Positions 3,737-30,577 of a stretch of 36,078 bases of DNA are shown piece by piece. A program made the translations under genes and the position numbers. How positions within the stretch are numbered: position 1 is the stretch's first letter; every line of letters starts with the position of its first letter. Source of the DNA: a virus (taxonomy: Duplodnaviria; Caudoviricetes); the IMG/VR virus record IMGVR_UViG_3300028712_000007, positions 1 through 36,078 of that record. The stretch is one strand, 5' to 3'. Under the pieces are notes generated by a model. The model made no database searches and was not told the origin of the DNA. It saw only the letters and a list, made by a program, of their open reading frames with translations.

Positions 3737-3982
3737 CTAGGCGGTGATCGTGAGGGCCGAGCCGACCTTCACGTAGATGTCGTTGAACTTGCCGGGCTTC
3801 TTGGCCTTGACCTTGAACGAGACGGTGCCGTTGTTCCAGGCGTGCGCGGCGGGCTTGCCCCACGCGGTGACCGGCGTGTAGCCGTTGACGGCGACTGCGC
3901 CCCCCTTGACCATTGCGACGTTGATCGCGTCGGCCAGTGCGAGGGAGTTGTGCGCGGTGACAACTGCGGTGATGGAGGTCAT
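3737..3982 (-). CDS. Hypothetical protein
   Basis: 81 aa, GAAAGGC RBS, directly downstream of repeat promoter copy 1. Confidence 0.75.
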   Translation of the reverse strand: MTSITAVVTAHNSLALADAINVAMVKGGAVAVNGYTPVTAWGKPAAHAWNNGTVSFKVKAKKPGKFNDIYVKVGSALTITA

Positions 3983-3999
3983 GCGGTGCCTTTCGTGTC

Positions 4000-4058
4000 G
4001 GTTTGGCTTGTACTAATAGTTTAGCATCTGGCGGACCCCCCTCCTAATCCTGGTTAGT
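4000..4058 (-). promoter_or_regulatory. Composite promoter/operator repeat, copy 1
   Basis: + strand GGTTTGGCTTGTACTAATAGTTTAGCATC then CCTAATCCTGGTTAGT; minus strand gives TGC-TAAACT extended -10. Confidence 0.8.
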
Positions 4059-4236
4059 GGAGATTCCGCACCACCTGCCAGTACTTGCCGTGGCTGTCGA
4101 GCACCGCGACGAGCGCGCCGTCGCGGCGAATCTTGGACGCCAGGCCGAACTCGCTGTGGTTGTACTGCGCCTCGGCCTTGGCCTGGGCGAGCGTGTCGCG
4201 GGCTGAGATGCGGTTGTCGCACTCGATGTAGAACAT
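4054..4236 (-). CDS. Hypothetical protein
   Basis: ATG at 4236 with GAAAGGC RBS; 60 aa MFYIECDNR... Confidence 0.7.
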   Translation of the reverse strand: MFYIECDNRISARDTLAQAKAEAQYNHSEFGLASKIRRDGALVAVLDSHGKYWQVVRNLH

Positions 4237-4256
4237 GGGGGCCTTTCGGGGTGGGG

Positions 4257-4284
4257 GAATCAGGGGGGTTGCCCCCCCTGATTC
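4257..4284. terminator. Intergenic hairpin GAATCAGGGGGG-TTGC-CCCCCCTGATTC
   Basis: 12-bp perfect inverted repeat between two co-oriented genes. Confidence 0.55.
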
Positions 4285-4286
4285 GG

Positions 4287-4778
4287 CTAGAGGCGAGCGG
4301 CGCAGACCGGGCCGATGCCCGCCGCGACGCTCTCGGGGTCGGTGAGCAGGCGGGCGCACACGACGCACCGGCCAGTCTTGACGCCCATCTCTGCGGCCTG
4401 TTCCAGCGTGAGCCGGGTGGCCGACTTGAGCAGGCGCATCGCGCCCGGGGCGTACTCGTAGCCGGTGTCGCCGAACACCTTGGCGTACAGGTTGCCGGAT
4501 GACTTGCTGGCCTGCACCTTGTAGATCAGGCCCTCGACGTAGAAGTAGCCCTCACCGAGAACGTTGCCGTCCTCGTGGACTGCGGGCTTGCGGGGCGCGG
4601 CGAACAGCGCGTCGATGTAGGTGGACGCCTTGGCGCGGTCCAGGTAGGGGTCGCGGGCAAGCGACTCGAAGGTTTCCGGGGTGACGCGCTCGGCCAGCAG
4701 GCGGGCGATGAGGGCGACCTGCTTCTCGCTGGCCGGGGCGACGGTCGCGTTGCGCGGGGCTGAGATGTAAGCGGACAT
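4287..4778 (-). CDS. DUF6011-like zinc-binding protein
   Basis: C-terminal CVVCARLLTDPESVAAGIGPVC signature; N-terminal ASEKQ motif. Confidence 0.75.
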   Translation of the reverse strand: MSAYISAPRNATVAPASEKQVALIARLLAERVTPETFESLARDPYLDRAKASTYIDALFAAPRKPAVHEDGNVLGEGYFYVEGLIYKVQASKSSGNLYAKVFGDTGYEYAPGAMRLLKSATRLTLEQAAEMGVKTGRCVVCARLLTDPESVAAGIGPVCAARL

Positions 4779-4798
4779 AGGGTGCCTTTCGGGCTATC

Positions 4799-4857
4799 GG
4801 TTTGGCTTGTACTAATAGTTTAGCATCTCAGCCAGACAGAACCTAATCCGGGTTAGG
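4799..4857 (-). promoter_or_regulatory. Composite promoter/operator repeat, copy 2
   Basis: Identical 29-bp core plus perfect CCTAA-TCCGGG-TTAGG. Confidence 0.8.
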
Positions 4858-4957
4858 GTTCCTCGCTGTGCGTTCGCTGTCAAGCCGGGTGCGGCGCGAA
4901 CCCTGCGCCCCTAGCCTCGTTCCGGTCGCCCAGACAATGCGGCCAGGAGAGGACGCC

Positions 4958-5140
4958 ATGACCAAGCAGAGCCAGAACCAGAACCGCACGCCGGACGAGC
5001 AGAACGAGCAGGACGCGGACGAAGCGCGCCGCCGACTGGTCGAGGACACTCAGCCCACCGACCAGCAGGGCCGGACCCAGCGGCAGGGCCAGCGAGGCCA
5101 GACCCAGCAGATGGACGAGGACACCCCCAGCGTGCAGTAG
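4958..5140 (+). CDS. Small hydrophilic Gln/Asp/Arg-rich protein; the only convincing + strand gene
   Basis: AGGAGAGG RBS, ATG at 4958, 60 aa, occupies an otherwise empty gap. Confidence 0.6.
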   Translation: MTKQSQNQNRTPDEQNEQDADEARRRLVEDTQPTDQQGRTQRQGQRGQTQQMDEDTPSVQ

Positions 5141-5187
5141 CAGGCGACCCCCGCCTGCGAGCGGGCCGGGCACTCCCCCCGGCCCGC

Positions 5188-5469
5188 TCACTCGGGGGCC
5201 GGGGGCCGCAGGCGCTCCTCGATGTCCTGCCAGCGGGCGAAGGCCCTGCGGGTGCCCCGGACGTAGATCGCCACGATGCCCGCGTCGAAAGCGGCACCGA
5301 GCCACGACCACGGCGAGCCGTGCATCGCGAGCCACACGTTCCAGCCGCCCAGCCCCGTGAACAGCATCGCCAGCGAGCCGTAGAAGTACAGGTCGCGCCG
5401 GTGCCACTTCCGCATGTGTTCGAGGTACGGGGTGGTGGGGTTGGCGGGCAGGTGCCCCCGGTCACGCAT
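5188..5469 (-). CDS. Small membrane protein with two predicted TM helices
   Basis: Hydrophobic segments LYFYGSLAMLFTGLGGW and WSWLGAAFDAGIVAIYV; start uncertain. Confidence 0.6.
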   Translation of the reverse strand: MRDRGHLPANPTTPYLEHMRKWHRRDLYFYGSLAMLFTGLGGWNVWLAMHGSPWSWLGAAFDAGIVAIYVRGTRRAFARWQDIEERLRPPAPE

Positions 5470-5698
5470 CCTGATGCGCCGCCTCCCAGTCGCGCCTGTC
5501 GGCGTGCGCAGGGCACAACCACTGACCGTCGCGCGTCGTATAGGCGGGGTCACCGCAGGCCGAGCCGTGCCCGATGCCCTGCGTGCAGGCGTGGTCGGTG
5601 CGGAGGCGGGGTTCCGCCTGCACCGGCGCGTCGGCTAGGTGCGCTTGTGCCGTCCAGTCGTCGCCCAGGGCTGAGCGCTTGACGATGCCCCACTTCAT
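5462..5698 (-). CDS. Hypothetical protein (C...C...CxxH)
   Basis: ATG at 5698 overlaps the upstream stop (ATGA); GAAGGAG RBS. Confidence 0.6.
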   Translation of the reverse strand: MKWGIVKRSALGDDWTAQAHLADAPVQAEPRLRTDHACTQGIGHGSACGDPAYTTRDGQWLCPAHADRRDWEAAHQDA

Positions 5699-6081
5699 GA
5701 GTTCTCCTTCGGGTTGCAGTAGAGGGTCGCGTGATCCATCGCGAGGAAGTTCAGCCGGTCCAGGGTGTTGTCGCCCTGGTCGCCGGTGCCGAGGCCGTCG
5801 CGCACATCGCCGCTGACGGTGCGGTCGCACGTGTCGCAGACGAGGCCGACCCAGCCCGGGTAGAACAGCACCAGCCGGAACTTCTCGGGGTCATACAGCG
5901 GCGTCGGCACTTCGCGCCATTCGAGTTTCGCCTCGGGGAAGAACGTGCGGCTGGTGCCGTTCGGGTGCGTGATGCGCACCTTGTCGCCGTCCCGCTCGAC
6001 GCTCGTGGCGACGTTCCAGGTGTTGCCGAAGCGGTACTGCCGCCCCGGGGTGAGCATCTTCGCGCGACACATCGTGGTCAT
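5695..6081 (-). CDS. Hypothetical protein
   Basis: ~128 aa with CDTC motif; start uncertain. Confidence 0.65.
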   Translation of the reverse strand: MTTMCRAKMLTPGRQYRFGNTWNVATSVERDGDKVRITHPNGTSRTFFPEAKLEWREVPTPLYDPEKFRLVLFYPGWVGLVCDTCDRTVSGDVRDGLGTGDQGDNTLDRLNFLAMDHATLYCNPKENS

Positions 6082-6095
6082 GGCTTGTTCCGCAT

Positions 6096-6338
6096 CTATT
6101 CGGGCACCCACGAGAAGTAGAACCTCGGGGAGTGCGTGAATAGAAGCGTGCCCTTCTGGCCGGTGGCCTTGCGGGTGGCCGTGACGAACGGGGCCATGAA
6201 GCCGGTGATGTCGAAGTCGAGCCGCACAGCGGACGAGTCCCAGACCTCCCGCCCGGCGTCGAGTTCCTGCTGGACAAGGTGCGGTGTCTCCACGATCAGC
6301 GCACGGCGCACTGCCTCGGTGGGGTCGATGTCGGTCAT
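6096..6338 (-). CDS. Hypothetical protein
   Basis: 80 aa, AAGGAGG RBS. Confidence 0.75.
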   Translation of the reverse strand: MTDIDPTEAVRRALIVETPHLVQQELDAGREVWDSSAVRLDFDITGFMAPFVTATRKATGQKGTLLFTHSPRFYFSWVPE

Positions 6339-6499
6339 GCGGCCTCCTTCATTTCGCCTGCGTAGGCAAGGGTGATGCCGTCGCGCTCGATGGTTGCGAA
6401 CGGCTGGGTGAGAGCGAACGCCAGGGCGGCGTCGTAGGAGAGGAAGTCGGTAGTGACCTGCTCATCGGAGAGGGTGCCTTCGGTGACGACGGTGAACAT
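6335..6499 (-). CDS. Hypothetical protein (54 aa, below ORF-track cutoff)
   Basis: MFTVVTEGTLSDEQVTTDFLSYDAALAFA...; overlaps both neighbours (TGATG/ATGA). Confidence 0.65.
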   Translation of the reverse strand: MFTVVTEGTLSDEQVTTDFLSYDAALAFALTQPFATIERDGITLAYAGEMKEAA

Positions 6500-6786
6500 C
6501 AGACCACCTCGTATGCGGTAGTGATCTGCTCGGCGGTCGCGCCCTGCGCCATTGCCTGGTTGAGCAGGACATCGACCTTCGCGGACAGCGTGGCAATCTC
6601 GAAGGGGGCCTGCGTGCCGAGCGGCCCGTAGCCGAGGCCGGAGCCTGCCACGCGGTTGCCGCTTTCGAGCGCGACGACTGCGCGGGTCGCGTCGTCAATC
6701 ACGCGGTTCAGGGACGTGCGGAGTTCGCGAGTCGCGTTGGACAGGTCGCGGAGGGTGGAGTCGAGGACTGCGATGGAGTGAGTCAA
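6499..6786 (-). CDS. Hypothetical protein
   Basis: TTG start, GAAAGGC RBS, downstream of repeat copy 3. Confidence 0.75.
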   Translation of the reverse strand: MTHSIAVLDSTLRDLSNATRELRTSLNRVIDDATRAVVALESGNRVAGSGLGYGPLGTQAPFEIATLSAKVDVLLNQAMAQGATAEQITTAYEVV

Positions 6787-6803
6787 GGGGTGCCTTTCGT
6801 AAT

Positions 6804-6862
6804 GGTTTGGCTTGTACTAATAGTTTAGCATCTGGGCCGACCCCCTCCTAATCGGCGTTAGG
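6804..6862 (-). promoter_or_regulatory. Composite promoter/operator repeat, copy 3
   Basis: Identical 29-bp core plus perfect CCTAA-TCGGCG-TTAGG. Confidence 0.8.
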
Positions 6863-6864
6863 GG

Positions 6865-6972
6865 TCAGTCACCGCACTTCGGGCATCCGTCGATGGGGCC
6901 GGGGTGCCAGTAGCCGGATGCGGTCACGTGCCCTGCGGCGGGGATGCCGGGGTACACCGGCCAGGCGTTCAC
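6865..6972 (-). CDS. Tiny hypothetical protein (35 aa, CPKC)
   Basis: GTGA overlap with the upstream stop, GGGAGG RBS, fills the gap. Confidence 0.45.
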   Translation of the reverse strand: MNAWPVYPGIPAAGHVTASGYWHPGPIDGCPKCGD

Positions 6973-7241
6973 ACGCCCCTCCCCAGGCTGTTGCGGGCGT
7001 ACTCGGGGAAGCGCTCGGGGTGGCGCACGAGGATGACCGTGGAGCGGTACATGCCGGTCGCGGCGACGATGGCCTCGACCGACGCGCCCTTGTCCATGAC
7101 CTCGTTCAACTTGACGTTCCGCTTGCGGCTGAGGAACCGCAGGGTGTCGGGGTCGGCGGTCATCTCGACCTCGTGGGCGAGTTCCGCCAGTTCGTAGATG
7201 CCGGTGCCCTCCTGCGTGGTGGTGCCTGATCCAGATGTCAT
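6969..7241 (-). CDS. Helix-turn-helix protein
   Basis: ATG at 7241; GASVEAIVAATGMYRSTV HTH pattern. Confidence 0.65.
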   Translation of the reverse strand: MTSGSGTTTQEGTGIYELAELAHEVEMTADPDTLRFLSRKRNVKLNEVMDKGASVEAIVAATGMYRSTVILVRHPERFPEYARNSLGRGV

Positions 7242-7507
7242 GCGGTCACCAGGGCCTTCTCTGCGGCGAACACGTCGAGCAGGTGCTTCGCGGTGTTGAA
7301 CGCGCGGAACGCCTCGACGGAGCGCGGGCCGCAGAACTGCCGGTCGTACTCGGTGCAGTCGGCGTCGTCGGCCACGGCCTTGATCGCCTGCAACTCGGCT
7401 ACGGCGTCGGCCATGATGCGGTTGAGGTACTGCGGTGCGGAGCCGAAGGCATCGGCGCGCCAGGCGGCGGCATGGATTGCCTCGGGGGCGAACTCGGACT
7501 TGAACAT
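7238..7507 (-). CDS. Hypothetical protein
   Basis: 89 aa, GAAAGGC RBS. Confidence 0.7.
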   Translation of the reverse strand: MFKSEFAPEAIHAAAWRADAFGSAPQYLNRIMADAVAELQAIKAVADDADCTEYDRQFCGPRSVEAFRAFNTAKHLLDVFAAEKALVTA

Positions 7508-7560
7508 GGGTGCCTTTCGTGGGGGTGAGAGGCCCGCCCGGCGAGGGGCGGGCCTGCGGG

Positions 7561-7878
7561 TTAGAAGGAGGGGTCGCGGTAGTCGTCCTTGACGCCGACG
7601 AGCAGGTGCGTAGCACCGCGCTCCATCGGCTGTCCCTTGACGATCCAGCGCCCGTTCTTGCGGAGGGTCCAGGTGCGGTACTCGGGGGAGTCATCGAACA
7701 CCATCTCGGCACCGTTCCACGTCCAGCCCTTGACGGCCTTGCCGTCCCAGGTGAGAACCGTCTTGCCGTTCTCGCTGACGTGCGTGATCTTGGTGCTAAC
7801 GCGGTCGGTGACGTAGCAGACGGTTGCGTCCATGCCGACCTCGGGGGCGGTTGCGGTGACGAAGAATGCGTTGAGCAT
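7561..7878 (-). CDS. Hypothetical phage protein
   Basis: 105 aa, PEVGMDATVCYVTDR...TLRKNGRW...YRDPSF; downstream of repeat copy 4. Confidence 0.75.
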   Translation of the reverse strand: MLNAFFVTATAPEVGMDATVCYVTDRVSTKITHVSENGKTVLTWDGKAVKGWTWNGAEMVFDDSPEYRTWTLRKNGRWIVKGQPMERGATHLLVGVKDDYRDPSF

Positions 7879-7895
7879 GAGGGGCCTTTCTAGGC

Positions 7896-7945
7896 GGTTT
7901 GGCTTACACTAATAGTCTAGCATCTGCCGCGAGAGTCCTCCTACG
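7896..7945 (-). promoter_or_regulatory. Composite promoter repeat, copy 4 (degenerate palindrome)
   Basis: GGTTTGGCTTACACTAATAGTCTAGCATC; only a CCTAC half-site. Confidence 0.75.
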
Positions 7946-7948
7946 GGA

Positions 7949-8239
7949 TCACCAGGGTTCGCACCCCTCGTCCATGCGGGCTTCGCGCTCGGTGGTGTGG
8001 TCGATGGAACAGCCCGGGGTGCTTCGCTCGCACGCCTCGCTCTCCTCCCGATCCCAGGCGGTGATCCGCTGACGCACGTCGCCTTCGCGCAGATCATCCA
8101 CGGTGGTGCAGATCGGGATGCCGTGCCGGATGACGTGGACGAGCAGGCGCGGCTCGGGGTGAGCGGGGGTTCGCACGTAGGCGGGGCCTCCCGCTTTCAG
8201 GCGGGCAGTCTCGGCGTGCCAGGGGGTGCGGTGTTCCAT
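7949..8239 (-). CDS. Hypothetical protein
   Basis: ATG at 8239 (TGATG coupling), GAGAGGA RBS; CERSTPGCSIDH...CEPW motif. Confidence 0.65.
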   Translation of the reverse strand: MEHRTPWHAETARLKAGGPAYVRTPAHPEPRLLVHVIRHGIPICTTVDDLREGDVRQRITAWDREESEACERSTPGCSIDHTTEREARMDEGCEPW

Positions 8240-8697
8240 CAGGTGTCCTCTCGGTTGGTTTCGCTGTTGGCGCGGGGCAGGGTCTTGGCACCGGGGCGAC
8301 CTTCGTTCAGGCCGAGCGCCGCCGCAGTGCCCTTCCACATCGGCCCGTGCCCGCCGTTGCCGCGCTTGCCCTGCCGGGACATCTCAGCCCCGGTGATGGC
8401 GTGCGCGCACTCGTGGGCGATGACGTGCGCCAGCGATGTCGTCCACCAGGCGGTGACGAACTGCTTGCGGTAGCGGATGCGCCGGATCGACCAGTAGCAA
8501 TCGCCGTGGCGCTGGTGCGCCTGCGGCGGCAGTGCTTCCACGACCCACGTGCTCGGGTTCGGGACGCCGTGCATCCTGAGCATGGAGTGGGTTGCGGTCT
8601 TGACCGCTTGCCACTTGCGGGCGTCGGTCGCGTCGGCGGGGATGGTGCGGAGATAGGCGAGAACGTCATCGACGTTGCGCAGGCGGGGACGGCCCAT
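8239..8697 (-). CDS. SprT-like zinc metalloprotease
   Basis: VIAHECAHA (HExxH) followed by GHGPMWK, the SprT-family pattern. Confidence 0.75.
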   Translation of the reverse strand: MGRPRLRNVDDVLAYLRTIPADATDARKWQAVKTATHSMLRMHGVPNPSTWVVEALPPQAHQRHGDCYWSIRRIRYRKQFVTAWWTTSLAHVIAHECAHAITGAEMSRQGKRGNGGHGPMWKGTAAALGLNEGRPGAKTLPRANSETNREDT

Positions 8698-8713
8698 GTT
8701 GCCCTTCGGGGTT

Positions 8714-8771
8714 GGTTTGGCTTACCCCTAAGTTTAGCACGGATCGCGTCAGAACCCTAATCGGGGTTAGG
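8714..8771 (-). promoter_or_regulatory. Composite promoter/operator repeat, copy 5
   Basis: GGTTTGGCTTACCCCTAAGTTTAGCA plus perfect CCTAA-TCGGGG-TTAGG. Confidence 0.75.
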
Positions 8772-15150: not shown

Positions 15151-15689
15151 AGCACGGACACCAGTTCGGCGGTCGGCTGGTTCGCGTCGAGCACGACGAC
15201 CGCCGAGGCGTACTGCTGTGCATCGCGGAAGGCGTTGGCGGCACCCTTGGCCGCGCCCCTGCGCCAGCCGGGGGCCTGCGCACTGCCGCGCTCCTCACAG
15301 CGGGCGTCGAGCACAGCCTCGTCCGCGACAAGGAGCACGACGGTCAGTTCGGTGTTCTCACCGAGCGCCCGCAGGAACCCCGCATTGCCCAGCCGTTGCC
15401 CCTCGCCCACGATGAAGCCGAGCCACGGTTCCAGGTTCCGCGCCCACACCCGCGCGTCGGGGGCGACCGCCATGCTGAGGGCATCGGTGCCGGGGAACTG
15501 CTGGCGATGCTTGCCCAGGTAGACGCCGGTGACCTCGCCGGTGCGGTCGGCCAGGTAGTGCCCGATGAGCGTGCGGTGCAGGCGGGTCGGCTCGGGCAGG
15601 GCGGTCCAGGCGTTGGCTTGCAGGTACGCCTTGACGAAGGTGCTCTTGCCCACCCCGGGTGCGCCGAGCACGTAGAGCGCGGCGGTCAT
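15147..15689 (-). CDS. P-loop nucleotide/adenylate kinase-like protein
   Basis: ATG at 15689; N-terminal YVLGAPGVGKST; GTDALSM; EGQRL; RCEERG lid-like motif. Confidence 0.8.
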   Translation of the reverse strand: MTAALYVLGAPGVGKSTFVKAYLQANAWTALPEPTRLHRTLIGHYLADRTGEVTGVYLGKHRQQFPGTDALSMAVAPDARVWARNLEPWLGFIVGEGQRLGNAGFLRALGENTELTVVLLVADEAVLDARCEERGSAQAPGWRRGAAKGAANAFRDAQQYASAVVVLDANQPTAELVSVL

Positions 15690-16693
15690 TGCTCGTACTG
15701 CTCCTTGTTGAACTCGCTCCACGTCTTGCTCGGCAGGCGGGCGGCACCGGCCTTCGGGCGGGTGTGGCCGTTCAGCACCTTCTCGCCCTCCATCTCCCAG
15801 GCCGGGTCGCCCATCTTGTCCTCGCGCTCGGTGCGCTTCACGCGGGCCAGGGCTGTCTCCTCGGCGAAGGTGTGGCAGTCCTTGAGTCCCTTGAGCGCGT
15901 AGTAGACCACGCTGATGCGATACGCCTCGGCGCTCTGCTTCGACATCGGCGTGACGCCATGCACCAGCCGACGCCCGAAGAACGCCACGGTGAACATGTC
16001 CCGGCAGGGCACCACGATGTCGTACTCGGGAATGTGCAGATGGCCCCCGCGCACCCCGCGCCGGATGACCGGCATGACGGACCACGCATCGAAGTTGTTC
16101 CCGTCGCGGTGGTACGGCAGGCTCGACTCCTTGTTGATCACGCCGCTTGTCCAGAGGGATGACTTCGAGAGCCGCCAGTCCGGGAGCACCTGTTCGATCA
16201 CGTCGCGCCCGGCAACCTCAATCTCGGGGAAGGCGTAGCCGAGTTGCACCGCGAGCACTTCGCTGTAGTGCGCCAGGAAGGATGCCTCGTCCGGGTAGTC
16301 GCGGTTGAACGCGGTGAGCACGCACGCCTCCTGGCGCATCATCGGCTTGCGCGGTCGGTAGCCGAAGGTGACGCTCACGTTGCGGTTGCCCGTTGCCGCC
16401 CGATAGGTGCCCCCGCCCGTGGTGCCCCCGAGTGCGGGCTGGCTTGCCAGCACAGCGGCGCGCAGGGCGTCCGGCTCCGGGCAGGGGAACAGGCCGAGCA
16501 CGGGTTCGCCGGTGTCGGCGTCCGTCCAGAGGCCCCCGTTGTTCAGGGCGGCGGTGGGGTGCATCGTGCCCACCTTCTTGCCGGTCAGGGCGGATGCCGC
16601 ATCGCTGTCCATCACGCGCCGCAGGGTGTGGCGAGGAAGGGCGTCCAGCACTGCTAAGTCGCGTTCGGAAAACAGGCTCATTTCGGCGGTCAT
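15686..16693 (-). CDS. TET/JBP-family 2OG-Fe(II) dioxygenase
   Basis: WTSGVIN...YHRDGNN (HxD)...GGHLHIPEY...LVHGVTPM (distal H)...YRISVVYY (2OG-binding R). Confidence 0.8.
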   Translation of the reverse strand: MTAEMSLFSERDLAVLDALPRHTLRRVMDSDAASALTGKKVGTMHPTAALNNGGLWTDADTGEPVLGLFPCPEPDALRAAVLASQPALGGTTGGGTYRAATGNRNVSVTFGYRPRKPMMRQEACVLTAFNRDYPDEASFLAHYSEVLAVQLGYAFPEIEVAGRDVIEQVLPDWRLSKSSLWTSGVINKESSLPYHRDGNNFDAWSVMPVIRRGVRGGHLHIPEYDIVVPCRDMFTVAFFGRRLVHGVTPMSKQSAEAYRISVVYYALKGLKDCHTFAEETALARVKRTEREDKMGDPAWEMEGEKVLNGHTRPKAGAARLPSKTWSEFNKEQYEQ

Positions 16694-16694
16694 G

Positions 16695-17384
16695 CTAACC
16701 CTCGTTTGCTTCGGCGTCGGGCATCAGGTCGATCAGGTGAGCCAGGATCGCCTCGGCATTCGACTCGGTGCCGGTGCGCTCCCGGAGCACCTTGAGCCGG
16801 GCGGTGACGGCGGGGTAGTCGTCCTTGTCATAGTCGAGCACGATGAGCCTGCGCCCCTGCTCGTCGTACCTGTCGCTGTAGTCGCTGATCGTGGTGGTGT
16901 CGTTGGTGTTGTCCTTCGGGTCGTGCTCACCCAGCCGGTCCATCAGGTCGTCAATGTCGTTGATGTCGAAGCCGATGCCGGTCAGGCCCGCGTCGCTGGA
17001 AGCGAGGGTGTCCAGGAGGGTGAGCAACTGCGCATCCTCCCATCCGCCCAACTGCCCGGTGCGGTTCAGGGCGATGAGCGCGCCCCGGGCTTCCGCGTCG
17101 TTGCGGGATGCCCAGCCCCCTACGACCGGCACCATCCACTCGCCGCGCTCGCCGATCTGCACGCCTTCGGGCGGGGCCTCGCCGCGTGCCTTGGCGTCAG
17201 TCAGGGTCTTGGTTCTGCCGTGCCCGCTGATGATGTAGCCGGTGCGCTCATCGAGGACGATGGGTTCCACGTAGCCGAACCGCCCGATGCTCTCCCCGAT
17301 GGTGTCGATGGCGTGCGCCTTCGGGTTCGCCGGGTCCGGTTGCAGTTGGGCCAGCGGGTAGTACGTCAGGGTGCGGTCGGTCAC
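16695..17384 (-). CDS. ParB-like N-terminal domain protein
   Basis: GTG at 17384 with AAGGAG RBS; LQPDPANPKAH...SIGRFGYVEPIVLD...ISGHGR. Confidence 0.8.
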   Translation of the reverse strand: MTDRTLTYYPLAQLQPDPANPKAHAIDTIGESIGRFGYVEPIVLDERTGYIISGHGRTKTLTDAKARGEAPPEGVQIGERGEWMVPVVGGWASRNDAEARGALIALNRTGQLGGWEDAQLLTLLDTLASSDAGLTGIGFDINDIDDLMDRLGEHDPKDNTNDTTTISDYSDRYDEQGRRLIVLDYDKDDYPAVTARLKVLRERTGTESNAEAILAHLIDLMPDAEANEG

Positions 17385-17839
17385 TGGCCTGTCTCCTTGA
17401 GAGTCATGAGTCGTTCGATGAGGAGGGTCCGGGCCAGGTCGGCGTCGGGGCCTCCCTGCTTCACCACGCCTGCGCGGTCGAGGATGCTGTTGGCCGCGCG
17501 CTGACGGTCGGCGCTGAACGGTGCGGTTGCCATCTCGCGGGCAAGCGTGGCGATGGCCGGGGCGATGAGTTCCAGGAGGCGAATCTGTGCGGCGCGCTTC
17601 ACCTGCGGGGCGGCTCCGCCGTGCATCCGGCACACTGTCGCGCCGTCGATGGGTGCGTTGCGGCATCCCCGGCCACTGCGCGTGCGGGCAGTGCAGGTCC
17701 GTGCCAGGGGTGCCCGGGCGCGTGCATGGGTGCGCTCTTGCATGGGGTGCCGCGCGTCATCCAGGATGATCACATTGCTAACCGGGGTTAGCGGCGGTGC
17801 CGGGCCGTCGTCGCTCATGGTGACCTCCTCGCTGTCCAT
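17381..17839 (-). CDS. terS: Terminase small subunit (probable)
   Basis: CTARTRSGRGCRNAPIDGATVCRMHGGAAPQVKRAA zinc-knuckle motif, ILDRAG; leads the packaging operon; start uncertain. Confidence 0.65.
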   Translation of the reverse strand: MDSEEVTMSDDGPAPPLTPVSNVIILDDARHPMQERTHARARAPLARTCTARTRSGRGCRNAPIDGATVCRMHGGAAPQVKRAAQIRLLELIAPAIATLAREMATAPFSADRQRAANSILDRAGVVKQGGPDADLARTLLIERLMTLKETGQ

Positions 17840-19641: not shown

Positions 19642-19860
19642 TCAGCCTTTCGTAGCGGGGCGGCGAGCCGCCTTGAGAACGGCCACGTCACTCGTGCCTG
19701 CCTGCTCGGCAATCGCGGCCCAGGTGTTGCCTGCGGCGCGGGCCTTGCGCACGACCTCACCGAGATACTGGTTCTGATCGGCCAGGCGTTTGAGCAGATC
19801 ATCGCGCTTGCGGTATGCCTGCGCGACCTCGGCTAGCGTGTCCGGTTCGGCGGTTCTCAT
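19642..19860 (-). CDS. Helix-turn-helix DNA-binding protein
   Basis: ARAAGNTWAAIAEQAGTSDVAV HTH. Confidence 0.75.
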   Translation of the reverse strand: MRTAEPDTLAEVAQAYRKRDDLLKRLADQNQYLGEVVRKARAAGNTWAAIAEQAGTSDVAVLKAARRPATKG

Positions 19861-21893: not shown

Positions 21894-22093
21894 GCGTTCA
21901 CCCCCACGCCCGGGGCGATGGTCAGGACGGTTGCGCCTGCCGCCTTGAGGGCGACGGCCTTGCCGTTCTTGTAGACGGTGCAGGCGGTCGCGTCGTCAGC
22001 GAGGGCGATCTGGACAGCGTGCGAGTAGTCGGTGGCGATGTAGTAGCCGTAGCCGTCCTGGACGGTGAACTTTGCGGCGGTGGAAGCGGCCAT
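21890..22093 (-). CDS. Hypothetical protein
   Basis: 67 aa, GAAAGGC RBS, downstream of repeat copy 6. Confidence 0.7.
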   Translation of the reverse strand: MAASTAAKFTVQDGYGYYIATDYSHAVQIALADDATACTVYKNGKAVALKAAGATVLTIAPGVGVNA

Positions 22094-22110
22094 GAGGTGC
22101 CTTTCGATGC

Positions 22111-22169
22111 GGTTTGGCTTGTACTAATAGTTTAGCATCCGCACGACGAAACACCTAATCCGGGTTAGG
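22111..22169 (-). promoter_or_regulatory. Composite promoter/operator repeat, copy 6
   Basis: Identical 29-bp core plus perfect CCTAA-TCCGGG-TTAGG. Confidence 0.8.
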
Positions 22170-24888: not shown

Positions 24889-25611
24889 TCATGCGGTTGC
24901 GTCGGCGTCGGCGGGAGCCTCAGCGGGGGCGTCGGTGTGATCGAGCACCCAGGCCGCGACCCTCTCCTTGACGTTGCGGTTCGCCTCCACGATTGCGCGC
25001 ACGTCCTCGACGGCGGCGAGGTAGCCCTGCTGGTGCGCTGTCTTGCGTGCGGCGCGCGGGGTGCGCGTCCGGCCTGCACCGGCGTCACGGATGATGCGGC
25101 CCACGCGGATGAGGCCCGCCGTGTCAGCGAGCACCTTGCGGGGGATGCCCGCCTGCGCGCCCTTGACGATGGCGGCGTCACGGGTCGCGTGATCCGGCGC
25201 GTCAGCAATCTCAGCCAGGATGGCCGCGTGCTCGGCGCTGGTTTCGACCGCGTGATCTGCGACAACCTGCTCGGCGGCGGCAATGACTGCGCTGGCGTGA
25301 GCCAGGGCCTCATCGACTTCCTTCGCCTGCTCGGCGGTCAGTTCGACGGCGGCTTCCTCGTCCTTGGCGAACTCGATGCTCATGTCGCTGACGCCTGCGG
25401 CCTCGGCCTGGCAGAACTCGCAGAAGTCCAGTGCCGTGACAGCGAGGGCGTCCAACTGCGTGCCCGTGTTGACGAGAGTGTTGTGCTCGTCGCAGAGCGT
25501 GACCCACTTGCCACCCTCCGGGTCCACGCCAAGTTCTACGGCGCGGCCAACGGTGAGCGAGTGAGCGGCACCCTTGGGGGTGCGGGTGTAGGGGAATGTG
25601 ATCCCAGCCAT
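24889..25611 (-). CDS. Hypothetical protein (N-terminal Zn-binding domain, central HTH-like segment)
   Basis: 240 aa; CDEH...CEFC; GIPRKVLADTAGL; downstream of repeat copy 7. Confidence 0.75.
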   Translation of the reverse strand: MAGITFPYTRTPKGAAHSLTVGRAVELGVDPEGGKWVTLCDEHNTLVNTGTQLDALAVTALDFCEFCQAEAAGVSDMSIEFAKDEEAAVELTAEQAKEVDEALAHASAVIAAAEQVVADHAVETSAEHAAILAEIADAPDHATRDAAIVKGAQAGIPRKVLADTAGLIRVGRIIRDAGAGRTRTPRAARKTAHQQGYLAAVEDVRAIVEANRNVKERVAAWVLDHTDAPAEAPADADATA

Positions 25612-25635
25612 GATGTGCCTTTCGTTTATGAGTGC

Positions 25636-25695
25636 GGTTTGGCTTACACCTAAAGTCTAGCATCGGTGCCGACTGACTTCCTAATCCCGGTTCGG
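25636..25695 (-). promoter_or_regulatory. Composite promoter/operator repeat, copy 7
   Basis: GGTTTGGCTTACACCTAAAGTCTAGCATC plus CCTAATCCCGGTTCGG. Confidence 0.8.
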
Positions 25696-25712
25696 CCCGC
25701 AGGGAAAGAAGG

Positions 25713-25810
25713 GGGCGTCGCGCTAAATCGCCAAACCGAGCGCGACGCCCAGGGTCACTTACTACGAAAGGCGAGTGACCCCACCAGTGTATCTCCCTCG
25801 ACGCACTGGT
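25713..25810 (-). ncRNA. Triple-hairpin structured element 3' of ssb; candidate antisense sRNA/terminator
   Basis: Three adjacent stems (12, 8 and 7 bp), each with a 14-nt loop; the last hairpin on the minus strand is followed by CCTTCTTT. Confidence 0.5.
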
Positions 25811-25813
25811 TGC

Positions 25814-26302
25814 CTAGAACGGGGTGTCGTCCCCGTACAGCCCCGGCGTTGACCACGCCTGCTCCTGCGGTGCCGCCGCAGGGGCCGCAGAGCCGGGGGT
25901 TGCCCACGGGTCAGCCGCCACGCGCCGGTCGCCGCCCGGGGCGGTGCGGGTGATCTGCGCCGTCGCGTACTTGAGACTCGCGCCGATGTCCTCGACTTCG
26001 AGTTCTATCGCGGTGCGCTTCTCGCCCTCCCGTGTCTCGTAGGACCGTTGCTTGAGCGTGCCGGTGCAGACCACGCGACTGCCCTTCGTCAGCGAGCCGG
26101 TGACGTGCTCCGCGAGGTCGCGCCAGGCCGAGCACCGCATGAACAGCGCGTCGCCGTCCTTCCACTCGTTCGCCTGGCGGTCGAAGAACCGGGGGGTGCT
26201 GGCGACGGTGAAGCCTGCCACAGCGATGCCGGTCTGTGTGTACCGCAGTTCGGGGTCGGCGGTGAGGTTGCCGACGACGGTGATGAGCGTTTCCCCGGCC
26301 AT
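25814..26302 (-). CDS. ssb: Single-stranded DNA-binding protein
   Basis: [22 protein letters not shown]...[12 protein letters not shown]...DDTPF C-terminus; actinobacterial SSB. Confidence 0.95.
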
Positions 26303-27665: not shown

Positions 27666-28195
27666 ACCTCGATCCCCCCTGCGATGCTGTCGGCCTCGTT
27701 CACCTGTTCTTCCAGGTGTTCCCGGCGACGCTCGTCCCACTCCTGCCACTCCTCGCTGTCGGTGTCCTCCGGCTCCTCCTCATCGAAGGCTTCCAGCGAG
27801 TGTGAATCCCACTCGTCCACTGCGGCCTGCGCGGTGTCCATCAGTTCTTCGAGTTGGCCGTTGCCGTTCTCCCAGGCTTCAAGCGCCTGCTCCCGCTCCT
27901 CAAGGAACTCGGTCAGTGCATCGCCGAGAGCGTCCCACTCGCTTTCCAGGTCGTCGTGGGATTCGATGCCCGCACTCACGGCGTCCTGCCACGCTTCCAG
28001 CGCTGACAGCGGCGCACTGCGCGCCGAGCGGGTCAGTTCGCTGGGGCGGAAGGGGTGGTTGACGCATCGGTAGATGGTGCTCCCGTGGTAGCCCGGCGAT
28101 GCGCTGAGGTAGGGATCACCCTTCGGGATGACGTGCCCGCCCCTGCCGCAGATGTGCTCCTTGCGAGAGCGCTCGGTGCGCTTGACTCGCGCCAT
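27662..28195 (-). CDS. Acidic hypothetical protein with N-terminal Zn-binding motif
   Basis: 177 aa, downstream of repeat copy 8. Confidence 0.75.
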   Translation of the reverse strand: MARVKRTERSRKEHICGRGGHVIPKGDPYLSASPGYHGSTIYRCVNHPFRPSELTRSARSAPLSALEAWQDAVSAGIESHDDLESEWDALGDALTEFLEEREQALEAWENGNGQLEELMDTAQAAVDEWDSHSLEAFDEEEPEDTDSEEWQEWDERRREHLEEQVNEADSIAGGIEV

Positions 28196-28214
28196 AGTTT
28201 TGCCTTTCGTTTGC

Positions 28215-28273
28215 GGTTTGGCTTACAAGTAAAGTCTAGTGCCTACAGTGCCGGGCACCTAATCGAAGTTAGG
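28215..28273 (-). promoter_or_regulatory. Composite promoter/operator repeat, copy 8
   Basis: GGTTTGGCTTACAAGTAAAGTCTAG plus perfect CCTAA-TCGAAG-TTAGG; lacks the TG extension. Confidence 0.75.
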
Positions 28274-28290: not shown

Positions 28291-28524
28291 TCAGGCGTGC
28301 ATCACGGCTTCGATGAGGTCACCGATCATGTCACCGGCACAGATACCGCCTTCGGTGAGGGCGTCGGTGAGGACGAGCAGGAACGTGGTGTCGTCCATGT
28401 CAGCGCCCGCCTCCTTGAACTGCGCGGCAAGTTCGCCGCCGACGATGTGGACGCACAGCGGGTGATGGCCGGTGACTTCGGCAATCAGTTCGAGCGACTG
28501 CGTGAACGCGGGTGAGTGGGTCAT
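28291..28524 (-). CDS. Hypothetical protein
   Basis: ATG at 28524 with GAAAGGC RBS. Confidence 0.65.
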   Translation of the reverse strand: MTHSPAFTQSLELIAEVTGHHPLCVHIVGGELAAQFKEAGADMDDTTFLLVLTDALTEGGICAGDMIGDLIEAVMHA

Positions 28525-28581
28525 GGGATGCCTTTCGTGTGGCGGTGGTTTGGCTAGGGCTGAACTGCCCGACCCGCCCAA

Positions 28582-28615: not shown

Positions 28616-29617
28616 TCAGACCAGGGCCGCTTCCAGCGCCAGGTTCTTCGCGTCCGTCATGATGCGGTTCGGCTTGAGGATCGCCCGCTTGAAGCGAGTC
28701 TCGTTGTCCTGCGCGCGCCGGTAGTGCTCGGCGTACTCGCTGGATGCCTGCAAGAGTCCGTAGGCGGTGCCCTGGATGCCCTCGCCGGTGACGCCGTTGT
28801 AGACGCTCATCCACTCGCCGCGTGCGGCCTCGATGTTGGTGCGCACCCGGTCGCTCGTGATGCCCTTCGGCGGCTCCGGGATGAACCGGGTGATGAACTC
28901 CTGGACGCCCTGCGGGCTGACCTTGGTGTCCAGCATGTGCGCCGAGAACAGGTTCCACGCCTGCACCGACTCGCGCCAGCCGGACAGCGCCTCGCGGGCC
29001 TCCTCGATGCGGTCAGCGATGTTCTTGCTGTGGCGGAAGGTGAACTCGGTGCCTGCCTGCTGGGCGTCGATGTCAGCCATGCGCAGGGTGTTCGCGCAGA
29101 CCACGCGGGTTGCCGTGGCCGACCCCTTGAACGCGCCCGAACCGTCGTGCGAGTTTTGGAGCAGGTAGTAGTGCATCGTGGCACCGTTGGGATCGCCGTT
29201 GACGAACAGCGGGTGGTCGAGCGCCAGCATGAGCCAGACGCGCTTGCCGCCCCGGAGGGTGCCGCCCGTTTCGTACTTGACATCGACGCCGCCGCCCTGG
29301 ATGGCCTCACCGATGTCCCACATCTCGTCGTTGCTGACGGTGACGTAGGAGTCGCTGATGATGCCTAGGTGCTGGTGGTTGTCACTGCGCACGTTGCGCA
29401 TCTCGCCGGGAATCTCGACGTACTTCACGTCGGGTTCGCCCTGCTCGTTGATGTAGATTTCGCGCCCGAACACGGGTTCGCTGATGGGTTCCCAGCCGTG
29501 GACGAGAGGCTGGGCCTCCTCGCGAGTGGGGTACTCATCGAGGACGACGCCGAGGCGGTGCCAGGGCATTTCCCGCACGGAGAACATGTTGTCCGTGCCG
29601 GTGATTTCGTGAGACAA
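28616..29617 (-). CDS. DUF932 family (phage/plasmid-like) protein
   Basis: MFSVREMPWHRLG...ETGGTLRGGKRVW...NSHDGSGA...RVVCANTL...RHS...GTAYGLLQA. Confidence 0.85.
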   Translation of the reverse strand: MSHEITGTDNMFSVREMPWHRLGVVLDEYPTREEAQPLVHGWEPISEPVFGREIYINEQGEPDVKYVEIPGEMRNVRSDNHQHLGIISDSYVTVSNDEMWDIGEAIQGGGVDVKYETGGTLRGGKRVWLMLALDHPLFVNGDPNGATMHYYLLQNSHDGSGAFKGSATATRVVCANTLRMADIDAQQAGTEFTFRHSKNIADRIEEAREALSGWRESVQAWNLFSAHMLDTKVSPQGVQEFITRFIPEPPKGITSDRVRTNIEAARGEWMSVYNGVTGEGIQGTAYGLLQASSEYAEHYRRAQDNETRFKRAILKPNRIMTDAKNLALEAALV

Positions 29618-29635
29618 GGTGTGCCTTTCAGTTGC

Positions 29636-29695
29636 GGTTTGGCTTACACCTAAAGTCTAGCATCCGGCTCACCCACCGTCCTAGAGCGGGTCAGC
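29636..29695 (-). promoter_or_regulatory. Composite promoter repeat, copy 9
   Basis: GGTTTGGCTTACACCTAAAGTCTAGCATC plus degenerate CCTAG-AGCGGG-TCAGC. Confidence 0.75.
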
Positions 29696-29977: not shown

Positions 29978-30577
29978 TCAGAATCCTCCCACCTGCTTCT
30001 GACGCCACGGCGGCGGTGCCAGGGCCTTGTACTCCTGGATCAGCGCATCGGCCTGCTGAATGTTCATGTCCGACCACTCCCCTTCGAGTTCTGCGCTGAC
30101 CCAGCCGCCGCGAGCCTCGTACAGATCGTGGAGATAGGCCAGTTGCTTGTCGGTTGCGCGCCCAGCGCGTTTGTCATGGGTTTCTTGTTCATGGGTTTCT
30201 ATTTCAATGGGTTTCTTTATAGAGGGCCGATTATCGAACGTTTGGTTAGCCAACGGTGGAAAACCGAACGTAGGTGTTTCTTCGGCAAACGGGTCGGCCA
30301 GCATGTAGTCGGTGCCGCCGAGGCGACCGCCGCTGTCACGCCTGCGGTGCCGGGTGAGGTAGCCCGCCGTTTCGAGTTCCACGATGGCCCCGCGCAGAGC
30401 GGAGCGGCCTTCCGGCCCGGCCTCCATGAGAGATTCGATGGTGACCTCCCAGCCGGGGGTGTGGCTCATGAGTTCGGCGAGCAGGCCGCGCGCACGGCGG
30501 CTGATGCGGCTGTCCCGGACCCAGGCGTTGGGGATTGTTGTGGTGCGTTCAAACGGGAAGGTGGGCCGCTGGATCAT
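29978..30577 (-). CDS. HTH replication initiator-like protein
   Basis: TTIPNAWVRDSRISRRARGLLAELMSH...GRSALRGAIVELETAGYL winged-helix pattern of phage replication initiators; internal AT-rich repeats. Confidence 0.75.
   Translation of the reverse strand: MIQRPTFPFERTTTIPNAWVRDSRISRRARGLLAELMSHTPGWEVTIESLMEAGPEGRSALRGAIVELETAGYLTRHRRRDSGGRLGGTDYMLADPFAEETPTFGFPPLANQTFDNRPSIKKPIEIETHEQETHDKRAGRATDKQLAYLHDLYEARGGWVSAELEGEWSDMNIQQADALIQEYKALAPPPWRQKQVGGF
30176..30285. repeat. Iteron-like repeats / putative replication origin inside the rep gene
   Basis: ATGGGTTTCT x3 (30176, 30191, 30207) and C(G/C)AACG x3 at a 15-bp period (30235, 30250, 30265) in a markedly AT-rich tract. Confidence 0.65.

Follow-up and report, generated by a model that had tools for sequence, protein, structure and literature searches.

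Satellite phage P4 makes an RNA, CI, which confers immunity and acts on a single operon through premature termination. To our knowledge, the known phage antisense RNAs directed against the phage's own genes (c4, OOP, and CI) control one message, and they do so in temperate phages. In the c4 RNA of phages P1 and P7, as described in the available portions of two reports, the b' loop occludes the ribosome binding site (RBS) and the a' loop, upstream, gives the specificity (PMC5320573; PMC12197685). Repeated motifs at gene starts have been described in other phages. In clusters EC and EI, an 18-bp motif is found 21–30 bp before start codons, and its role is called unclear in the sections available (PMC7302621; PMC9224216); the motif has been extended to 33 bp, including AAGCcaaaccgac (PMC12614000). 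The accessible text describes the EC phages as lytic, and EC and EI phages as lacking repressor and integrase genes (PMC7302621; PMC9224216). The SAS/ESAS elements of cluster K mycobacteriophages and cluster EF Microbacterium phages are over-conserved RBS tags on a subset of genes, with a role given as unknown in the excerpts at hand.

The DNA analyzed here (the window) is the 36,078-nt stretch of IMG/VR virus record IMGVR_UViG_3300028712_000007, which matched a longer record, G001, with no mismatch where the two were compared. The genes examined, all on the minus strand, included RecE-like and Erf-like recombination genes, DUF932, ssb, terminase, and portal, and the best named relatives were the Microbacterium phages Nicole72, Megan, Jayden, Paschalis, and Terij. 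Judged by these matches, the window is a relative of the Microbacterium cluster EC/EI phages.

A unit located after ssb in the window is predicted to yield a small RNA with likeness to c4, which the partial descriptions present as a phage RNA of ~77 nt acting in trans on its own phage's mRNA through two loops, with a specificity loop that differs between related phages. In the window, loop 2 was complementary to CGAAAGGC and loop 1 to GCCAAACCG, in antiparallel order, and the specificity loop covaried with its target between related phages. There are differences too. According to the same portions, c4 folds into three stems (P1–P3), is cut out by RNase P, targets an antirepressor message, and serves lysogenic immunity, whereas the post-ssb unit has two hairpins with a predicted promoter and terminator of its own, 10–16 predicted targets in phages described as lytic, and no Rfam match. 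Instead of an antirepressor message, ten dispersed leaders were found as targets, and the relatives are described as having neither repressor nor integrase. Membership in the C4 family was rejected: the Rfam model did not match, the fold differs, the targets are many, and the phages are described as lytic. By analogy, the post-ssb RNA most likely works like c4, as a variant of phage two-loop antisense control.

The locus shares with P4 CI the scheme of a small phage RNA that pairs with its own phage's leader and shuts expression off, but no sequence or Rfam link was found between them. It also resembles the 3'-UTR-derived SdhX and the phage-encoded sRNA of lambda (bioRxiv 2024.10.31.621285), in its short-seed, multi-target pairing, and like them it may use the terminator of an operon; however, in the parts of the descriptions available, those act on bacterial mRNAs with the enterobacterial chaperones Hfq/ProQ, whereas the post-ssb RNA has a predicted promoter of its own and is predicted to target a tag built into its own phage's regulon. 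The window repeat is of the same type as the EC/EI motifs (TARACT box, TAAGCCAAACCG, 21–30 bp before starts, one orientation), as far as the accessible sections show (PMC7302621; PMC12614000; PMC9224216). A TAGACT..GTGTAAGC-type motif, read against the consensus in the portion available of PMC7302621, was found at this distance and in one orientation. No antisense partner is mentioned in those sections, whereas here the EC/EI motif can be read as a promoter (CTAA-N6-TTAG repeat near -35 and TARACT as -10) and, after it, a transcribed tag that has its complement in the predicted RNA. The window shares RBS tags over-conserved on a subset of genes with SAS/ESAS, which differ, in the excerpts at hand, by their sequences and by the absence of a described antisense partner.

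The hairpin unit downstream of ssb

A sequence-only reading of the window had described three abutting hairpins after ssb, and all of its coordinates were correct. The stems 25713–24/25739–50 (12 bp), 25752–59/25774–81 (8 bp), and 25783–89/25804–10 (7 bp) were perfect Watson–Crick helices, each with a 14-nt loop, and the loops read on the minus strand as it had given them (Table 1). When positions 25700–25820 were folded, both strands beat 200 of 200 shuffles (z -4.45 for the minus and -5.63 for the plus strand), so that folding alone gave no choice of strand. The interval 25704–25781 of the minus strand formed a two-hairpin fold of -42.2 kcal/mol (z -6.23), matched by none of 200 shuffles. 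The minimum free energy (MFE) structure added weak pairs inside each 14-nt loop, and since these close part of each, the loops are only partly open.

The window element is a real, conserved feature. Rfam gave nothing at the gathering score over the window (only a chance sR19 match at E<=5) and no match over the post-ssb element in five relatives, and a blastn search of GenBank phages with the element of the window returned nothing at E 10. A literature search whose coverage excluded most subscription journals found no description of a post-ssb antisense RNA, and a search for RNA datasets containing the EC-type stretch L011:6000-15000 listed none.

Table 1. Coordinates of the post-ssb unit, its neighbors, and the predicted targets in the window
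Feature	Position	Strand	Remarks
ssb gene	25814..26302	-	phrog_44, E 3.6e-44
Hairpin 3, inverted repeat ACCAGTG-N14-CACTGGT over the -10 box; likely promoter element	25783..25810	.	
Putative -10 (TACACT) in the predicted promoter of the RNA	25786..25791	-	4 nt before hairpin 2
Predicted small RNA, ~78 nt: anti-RBS hairpin, anti-leader hairpin, pyrimidine tail	25704..25781	-	ends inferred from -10 box and tail
Hairpin 2; loop 25773-25760 with GCCUUUCG(UA), complement of RBS tag CGAAAGGC	25752..25781	-	
Hairpin 1, terminator-like, 12 bp; loop 25738-25725 with CGGUUUGGC, complement of leader tag GCCAAACC(G)	25713..25750	-	
Pyrimidine tail CCUUCUUUC, 3' of hairpin 1; likely weak intrinsic terminator	25704..25712	-	sequence; similar tails in relatives
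Repeat promoter and leader downstream of the unit; predicted target	25611..25694	-	operator-like repeat 25681-94, -10 TAGACT 25654-59, leader tag, RBS, ATG
Leader at head of the gene run ending in ssb; predicted target	28195..28222	-	
Both-tag leader; predicted target	28524..28554	-	
Leader of DUF932 gene; predicted target	29617..29643	-	
Both-tag leader; predicted target	22093..22118	-	
Leader tag with variant RBS (GAAGGGC); predicted loop 1 target	8697..8721	-	
Both-tag leader; predicted target	7878..7903	-	
Both-tag leader; predicted target	6786..6811	-	
Both-tag leader; predicted target	4778..4806	-	
Both-tag leader; predicted target	3982..4007	-	
RBS-only site (example); possible loop-2-only target	19645..19652	-	

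The putative -10 box (25791–25786) runs from the end of loop 3 into the 3' arm of the same hairpin. Hexamers of the TAnnnT form are rare (47 in 60,000 sense-strand bases of G001), yet one lay within 31 nt of the ssb stop in all 26 family regions. The combination of TAnnnT and a terminator-like hairpin was found in 13 of 13 family regions and 4 of 169 other post-ssb regions, a comparison in which the family labels were partly post hoc, assigned after the data were seen. In most relatives the first RNA stem began at or near the predicted start site. A rare yet family-wide box, with stems starting where transcription would begin, indicates that the RNA likely consists of hairpins 2 and 1 plus the tail, ~78 nt in all. 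A hairpin with a pyrimidine tail was present 3' of ssb in all 22 regions tabulated; the consensus terminator scan missed the window tail. Over the window unit, the consensus scan called neither a promoter nor a terminator, and it missed the repeat promoters as well.

The sequence-only reading had taken the RNA for a 3'-UTR derivative of the replication operon. This may hold in part: with a likely promoter of its own, the RNA would not be merely a 3'-UTR product, and the -10 box just upstream suggests that it is a primary transcript. Read-through from the ssb operon may add RNA, and because that operon is headed by the tagged leader at 28222, RNA made in this way would close a negative loop.

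No target had been assigned to loop 3, and none emerged here: over 21 start regions, 165 (by energy) and 367 (by run length) of 1000 shuffles did as well. The idea that loop 3 guides pairing to the spacer between RBS and AUG was rejected, with shuffles doing as well and with its 8–9 nt matches all falling outside the leaders. In the EC and EI relatives, the position of hairpin 3 is taken by an operator-like repeat of CTAA-N6-TTAG-like form that overlies the -10. Given this repeat and a loop without a target, hairpin 3 is best read as a promoter element, likely outside the RNA, which would explain the absent target.

A CTAA-N6-TTAG inverted repeat overlies the -35 region of most repeat promoters of the window (25681–25694 and, for example, near 4040, 4845, 22155, and 28260). 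It recurs in EC, EI, G002, G009, and G013, and is degenerate over the sRNA -10 in EC and EI. The repeat looks like an operator. The EC/EI clusters are described as lacking repressors; an HTH gene at 29978–30577 (phrog_37920) is a candidate binder. An unrelated phage (L339) has, after ssb, a promoter whose -35 and -10 are separated by a perfect CTAA-N6-TTAG palindrome, and then a long hairpin whose loop is C-rich.

Tags and predicted targets in the window

The leader tag GCCAAACC occurred in 10 copies on the minus strand and one on the plus strand, at 25730 (chance mean 1.0), and the RBS tag CGAAAGGC in 14 copies on the minus strand and one on the plus strand, at 25765 (chance mean 1.2). Totals of 11 and 15, respectively, were reached in none of 100 shuffles. 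Each tag thus has one antisense copy, in loop 1 for GCCAAACC and in loop 2 for CGAAAGGC, which bears out the earlier claim of a sole inverted copy. The fuller record G001 gave sense/antisense counts of 11/1 and 15/1. The order proposed for antiparallel pairing was also found, since ten leaders read leader tag, RBS, and start codon, opposite to the order of the loops on the minus strand.

Loop 1 matched the promoter leaders of the window over 8–9 nt in nine of nine cases (equally good shuffles, 0/400), and loop 2 had a perfect 7–10 nt match in eight of nine (0/300). The best single site reached -7.8 to -10.9 kcal/mol in all nine promoter leaders by a seed-plus-accessibility energy, which is our own estimate and not an IntaRNA value. 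By this measure only 5 of the 39 other start regions reached -7.0 kcal/mol, and CGAAAGGC was present in all five. Further RBS-only sites, at 4241, 7512, 19256, 24517, and 34639, are possible targets of loop 2 alone. In the region 3982–8721, small non-structural genes make up five repeat-promoter cassettes, inserted between genes for head morphogenesis and for a protease, and much the same cassette insertion is described for EC phages in the available part of PMC7302621.

Loop and leader change together in related phages

The post-ssb DNA was compared in relatives from GenBank and IMG/VR. In each lineage the DNA after ssb held a non-coding, structured unit that closed with a strong hairpin and a pyrimidine tail. 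Over six leader types, a post-ssb loop was complementary to the leader of the same phage, and the complementary stretch always lay 3' of the -10 box. A single antisense copy per genome was present, in the loop of the post-ssb hairpin. The sense/antisense counts were 6/1 for GTAAGCCCGG in G002, 5/1 for GCCAAACAC in the EI type (G003), 5/1 for TCAGGCAC in the Megan type (G004), 5/1 and 6/1 for GTAAGCCA in two EC genomes (G005 and G006), 2/1 for CACTCCC in G007 and G012, and 6/1 for GCCAAAC in MO526; G029 has four CACTCCC leaders. Complementarity, uniqueness within the genome, order, and co-change with the leader across lineages are therefore all properties of this locus. The core of the sequence-only reading, a minus-strand RNA whose loops pair with a shared leader and RBS, is supported by this co-change.

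The median perfect run between a loop and its own leaders was 6–10 nt, and at most 1 in 400 shuffles was as good in 9 of 11 genomes, for leader sets chosen by promoter patterns that were written after the contexts were seen. Weaker matches were found in G007 (11/400 shuffles as good) and in G030 (28/400, with one leader), and several EC leaders matched the loop over only 4–7 nt. The CACTCCC-type loop was widened by 4 nt on each side because the MFE structure closes it to GGGA. On the leaders of other types, the Megan-type and CACTCCC-type loops matched only 4–6 nt. The window, EC, and EI types have a common AAGCCAAAC core and cross-matches of 7–9 nt, so that the six types amount to about four to five clear changes. 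The ssb tree resolved the leader types poorly (4 of 15 branches strong), too weakly for changes to be counted.

In a loose screen of 182 post-ssb regions, nine of the 13 from the family passed, as did 8 of the 169 others. The comparison of post-ssb DNA left out G013, G009, and G014, which are fragments lacking an ssb match. Searches for more lineages added little. A scan with the single DUF932 protein returned only the window's own record; a pattern scan of metagenomes gave four matches, one of EC type and three unrelated; a GGGAGTG pattern scan gave 20 matches, of which only two, both already known, were real; and a scan of genome contigs gave four distant loci, of which the three with ssb showed no such unit by eye.

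The cluster GA phages Appa, Warren, Blett, and Phonegingi have the same layout of -10 and hairpin after ssb. In Appa (L400:29033-29110) and in L402-L404, the -10 is accompanied by a hairpin of 14 bp whose CCCCCA loop is conserved. The C-rich post-ssb loop of Appa matched none of its own leaders, including those with its RBS tag GGAGATC, which occurs 21 times in sense and once in antisense. A host or RNA target, in place of its own leaders, is possible for the Appa hairpin.

RNA or DNA, and which strand

Stems changed compensatorily around conserved loops after ssb in related phages, a check named in the sequence-only reading. In four CACTCCC-type hairpins, all 11 stem positions paired, with two to four pair types each, around an invariant loop; these stems were counted gaplessly from the loop, as MAFFT misaligned the four hairpins (0 pairs). 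Compensatory pairs numbered 5 of 33 in the Megan type and 3 of 33 in EC. Among matches of at least 8 nt in six genomes, the first paired base lay 6–11 nt past the -10 and never inside it, in 40 of 40. Pairing that covers the predicted transcript from its first bases, and never the -10, fits an RNA target and is hard to reconcile with a DNA site.

These data bear on an element that acts as DNA or in cis only, either an inverted tag bound by a protein or terminators of the ssb operon with the relic of an inverted duplication. The perfect, strand-neutral stems of the window would suit it, as would the location of hairpin 1, at a point at which transcription has to stop ahead of the next promoter. 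Nevertheless, the inverted copy never contains the -10 or the operator part, it follows the leader of each lineage, the loops that carry the tag sit on stems that are wholly replaced between phages, and the unit is preceded by a TAnnnT of its own. Such an element is thus considered unlikely.

As an alternative, the sequence-only reading had offered a plus-strand RNA that would present the tags in sense orientation, as decoys, to an RNA-binding protein. The plus strand, whose fold is equally good, carries TAnnnT hexamers at 25651 and 25658, but these are the reverse of the neighboring repeat promoter. In the relatives, the conserved -10 and the pyrimidine tail are on the ssb-sense strand, on which G-U outnumbered A-C by 22 positions to 5 over 24 regions, counts that are not independent and that stand at 2:2 in the window itself. 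This excess favors the ssb-sense strand as the RNA, and with -10, tail, and G-U excess all on that strand, the decoy is disfavored and appears highly improbable.

The shape of the 5' domain varied among lineages, from a simple hairpin to a three-way junction. In most genomes it contained anti-RBS, anti-start-codon, or RBS-adjacent sequence (in 9 of 11 genomes, 0–16 of 300 shuffles did as well), with weak domains in the Megan type (61/300) and G030 (31/300). An exact anti-RBS of 7–10 nt was displayed in the window, the EI type, G012, and Sunny. The last, examined after the model was set, had the expected loop and an unrelated new 5' domain with an unpaired CCUUUCC; over this likely RNA gene (L414:314-457), GenBank annotates a 47-codon hypothetical protein.

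The RNA could also pair in trans and yet stabilize or activate the leaders by protecting their 5' ends, or trigger premature termination or decay, with no block of the ribosome. The loop covers the predicted first message nucleotides in the EC, G002, and Megan types (positions 6–9 after the -10), and the 5' domains of EC and Megan lack a perfect anti-SD, as such a role would allow. In the window, EI type, G012, and Sunny, however, the exact anti-RBS would occlude the ribosome, and this possibility is regarded as very unlikely.

Proposed mechanism and significance

The post-ssb unit is probably a regulon-wide repressor RNA, a two-loop antisense RNA acting in trans to block translation of the repeat-promoter genes. 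A ~78-nt RNA (25781 to ~25704, minus strand) would be transcribed from TACACT and would end at hairpin 1. Its 3' loop (loop 1) would pair with nucleotides ~5–13 of each tagged message and its 5' loop (loop 2) with the SD, blocking 30S entry; binding by both loops at once would have to bridge a spacer of 4–11 nt. Pairing initiated by the loops would involve about ten two-tag and about six RBS-only leaders, and all tagged cassettes would be repressed together by ribosome occlusion. As the -10 of the RNA is of the same class as those of its targets, it would build up during infection and serve as a delayed off-switch for the presumed early cassettes. Several points count against this regulon-wide repression: the seeds are short (8–10 nt) and partly closed in the MFE structure, the terminator tail is weak, the consensus scan called no promoter or terminator, several EC leaders match only in part, and the Appa loop matches no leader of its own.

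A second phage that enters the same cell and has this type of leader would be silenced by the RNA too. The main alternative use of the same RNA and pairing is exclusion of, or immunity to, such an incoming phage, or a quiet carrier state, with the co-change reflecting exclusion groups like the heteroimmunity of P1 and P7. The specificity loop indeed differs from lineage to lineage and the anti-RBS part is the more constant of the two, a pattern like that of the a' and b' loops of c4 in the portion available of PMC5320573. Lytic EC phages, and EC/EI phages described as lacking repressor and integrase (accessible sections of PMC7302621; PMC9224216), argue against it, and no integrase was found among 32 window proteins scanned against PHROG and 12 against Pfam. 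Exclusion as the main job seems unlikely.

A broader proposal, still short of an even chance, is that lytic Microbacterium phages use an RNA address code: cassettes would carry tags, one post-ssb RNA would read tag and RBS, and tag and loop would be re-coded together. This RNA-only master repressor would double as a lineage-specific exclusion device and could explain the repeated start motifs of actinobacteriophages.

If the repressor function is true, 10–16 genes scattered over the genome of a lytic phage would be shut off by one RNA, an RNA switch at the level of a regulon. Such a switch would give a concrete function to the motif called unexplained in the available text of PMC7302621 and PMC9224216, and a model for the SAS elements. 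Cultured phages carrying the element allow direct testing: their GenBank records number 56 of EC type and 15 of EI type, duplicates of one phage being counted separately, and many of these phages are grown on M. foliorum. The natural orthogonal loop/leader pairs are possible translation switches for actinobacteria.

Additional observations

Three DUF932-bearing phages without an ssb match (G016, G018, and G024; L152-L157, L161-L163) have another repeated motif, TTACGTATGTCAGC, on both strands. In a fragment in which no ssb was found (L246 in G013), the Erf-like recombinase has an acidic tail of SSB type (DDTPF), and an operator-like site and a long hairpin come after its gene. Just before the terminase gene of the window, a queuine tRNA-ribosyltransferase-like gene (15686–16693, phrog_6059) lies beside a ParB-like gene (16695–17666), and the two possibly form a DNA-modification module.
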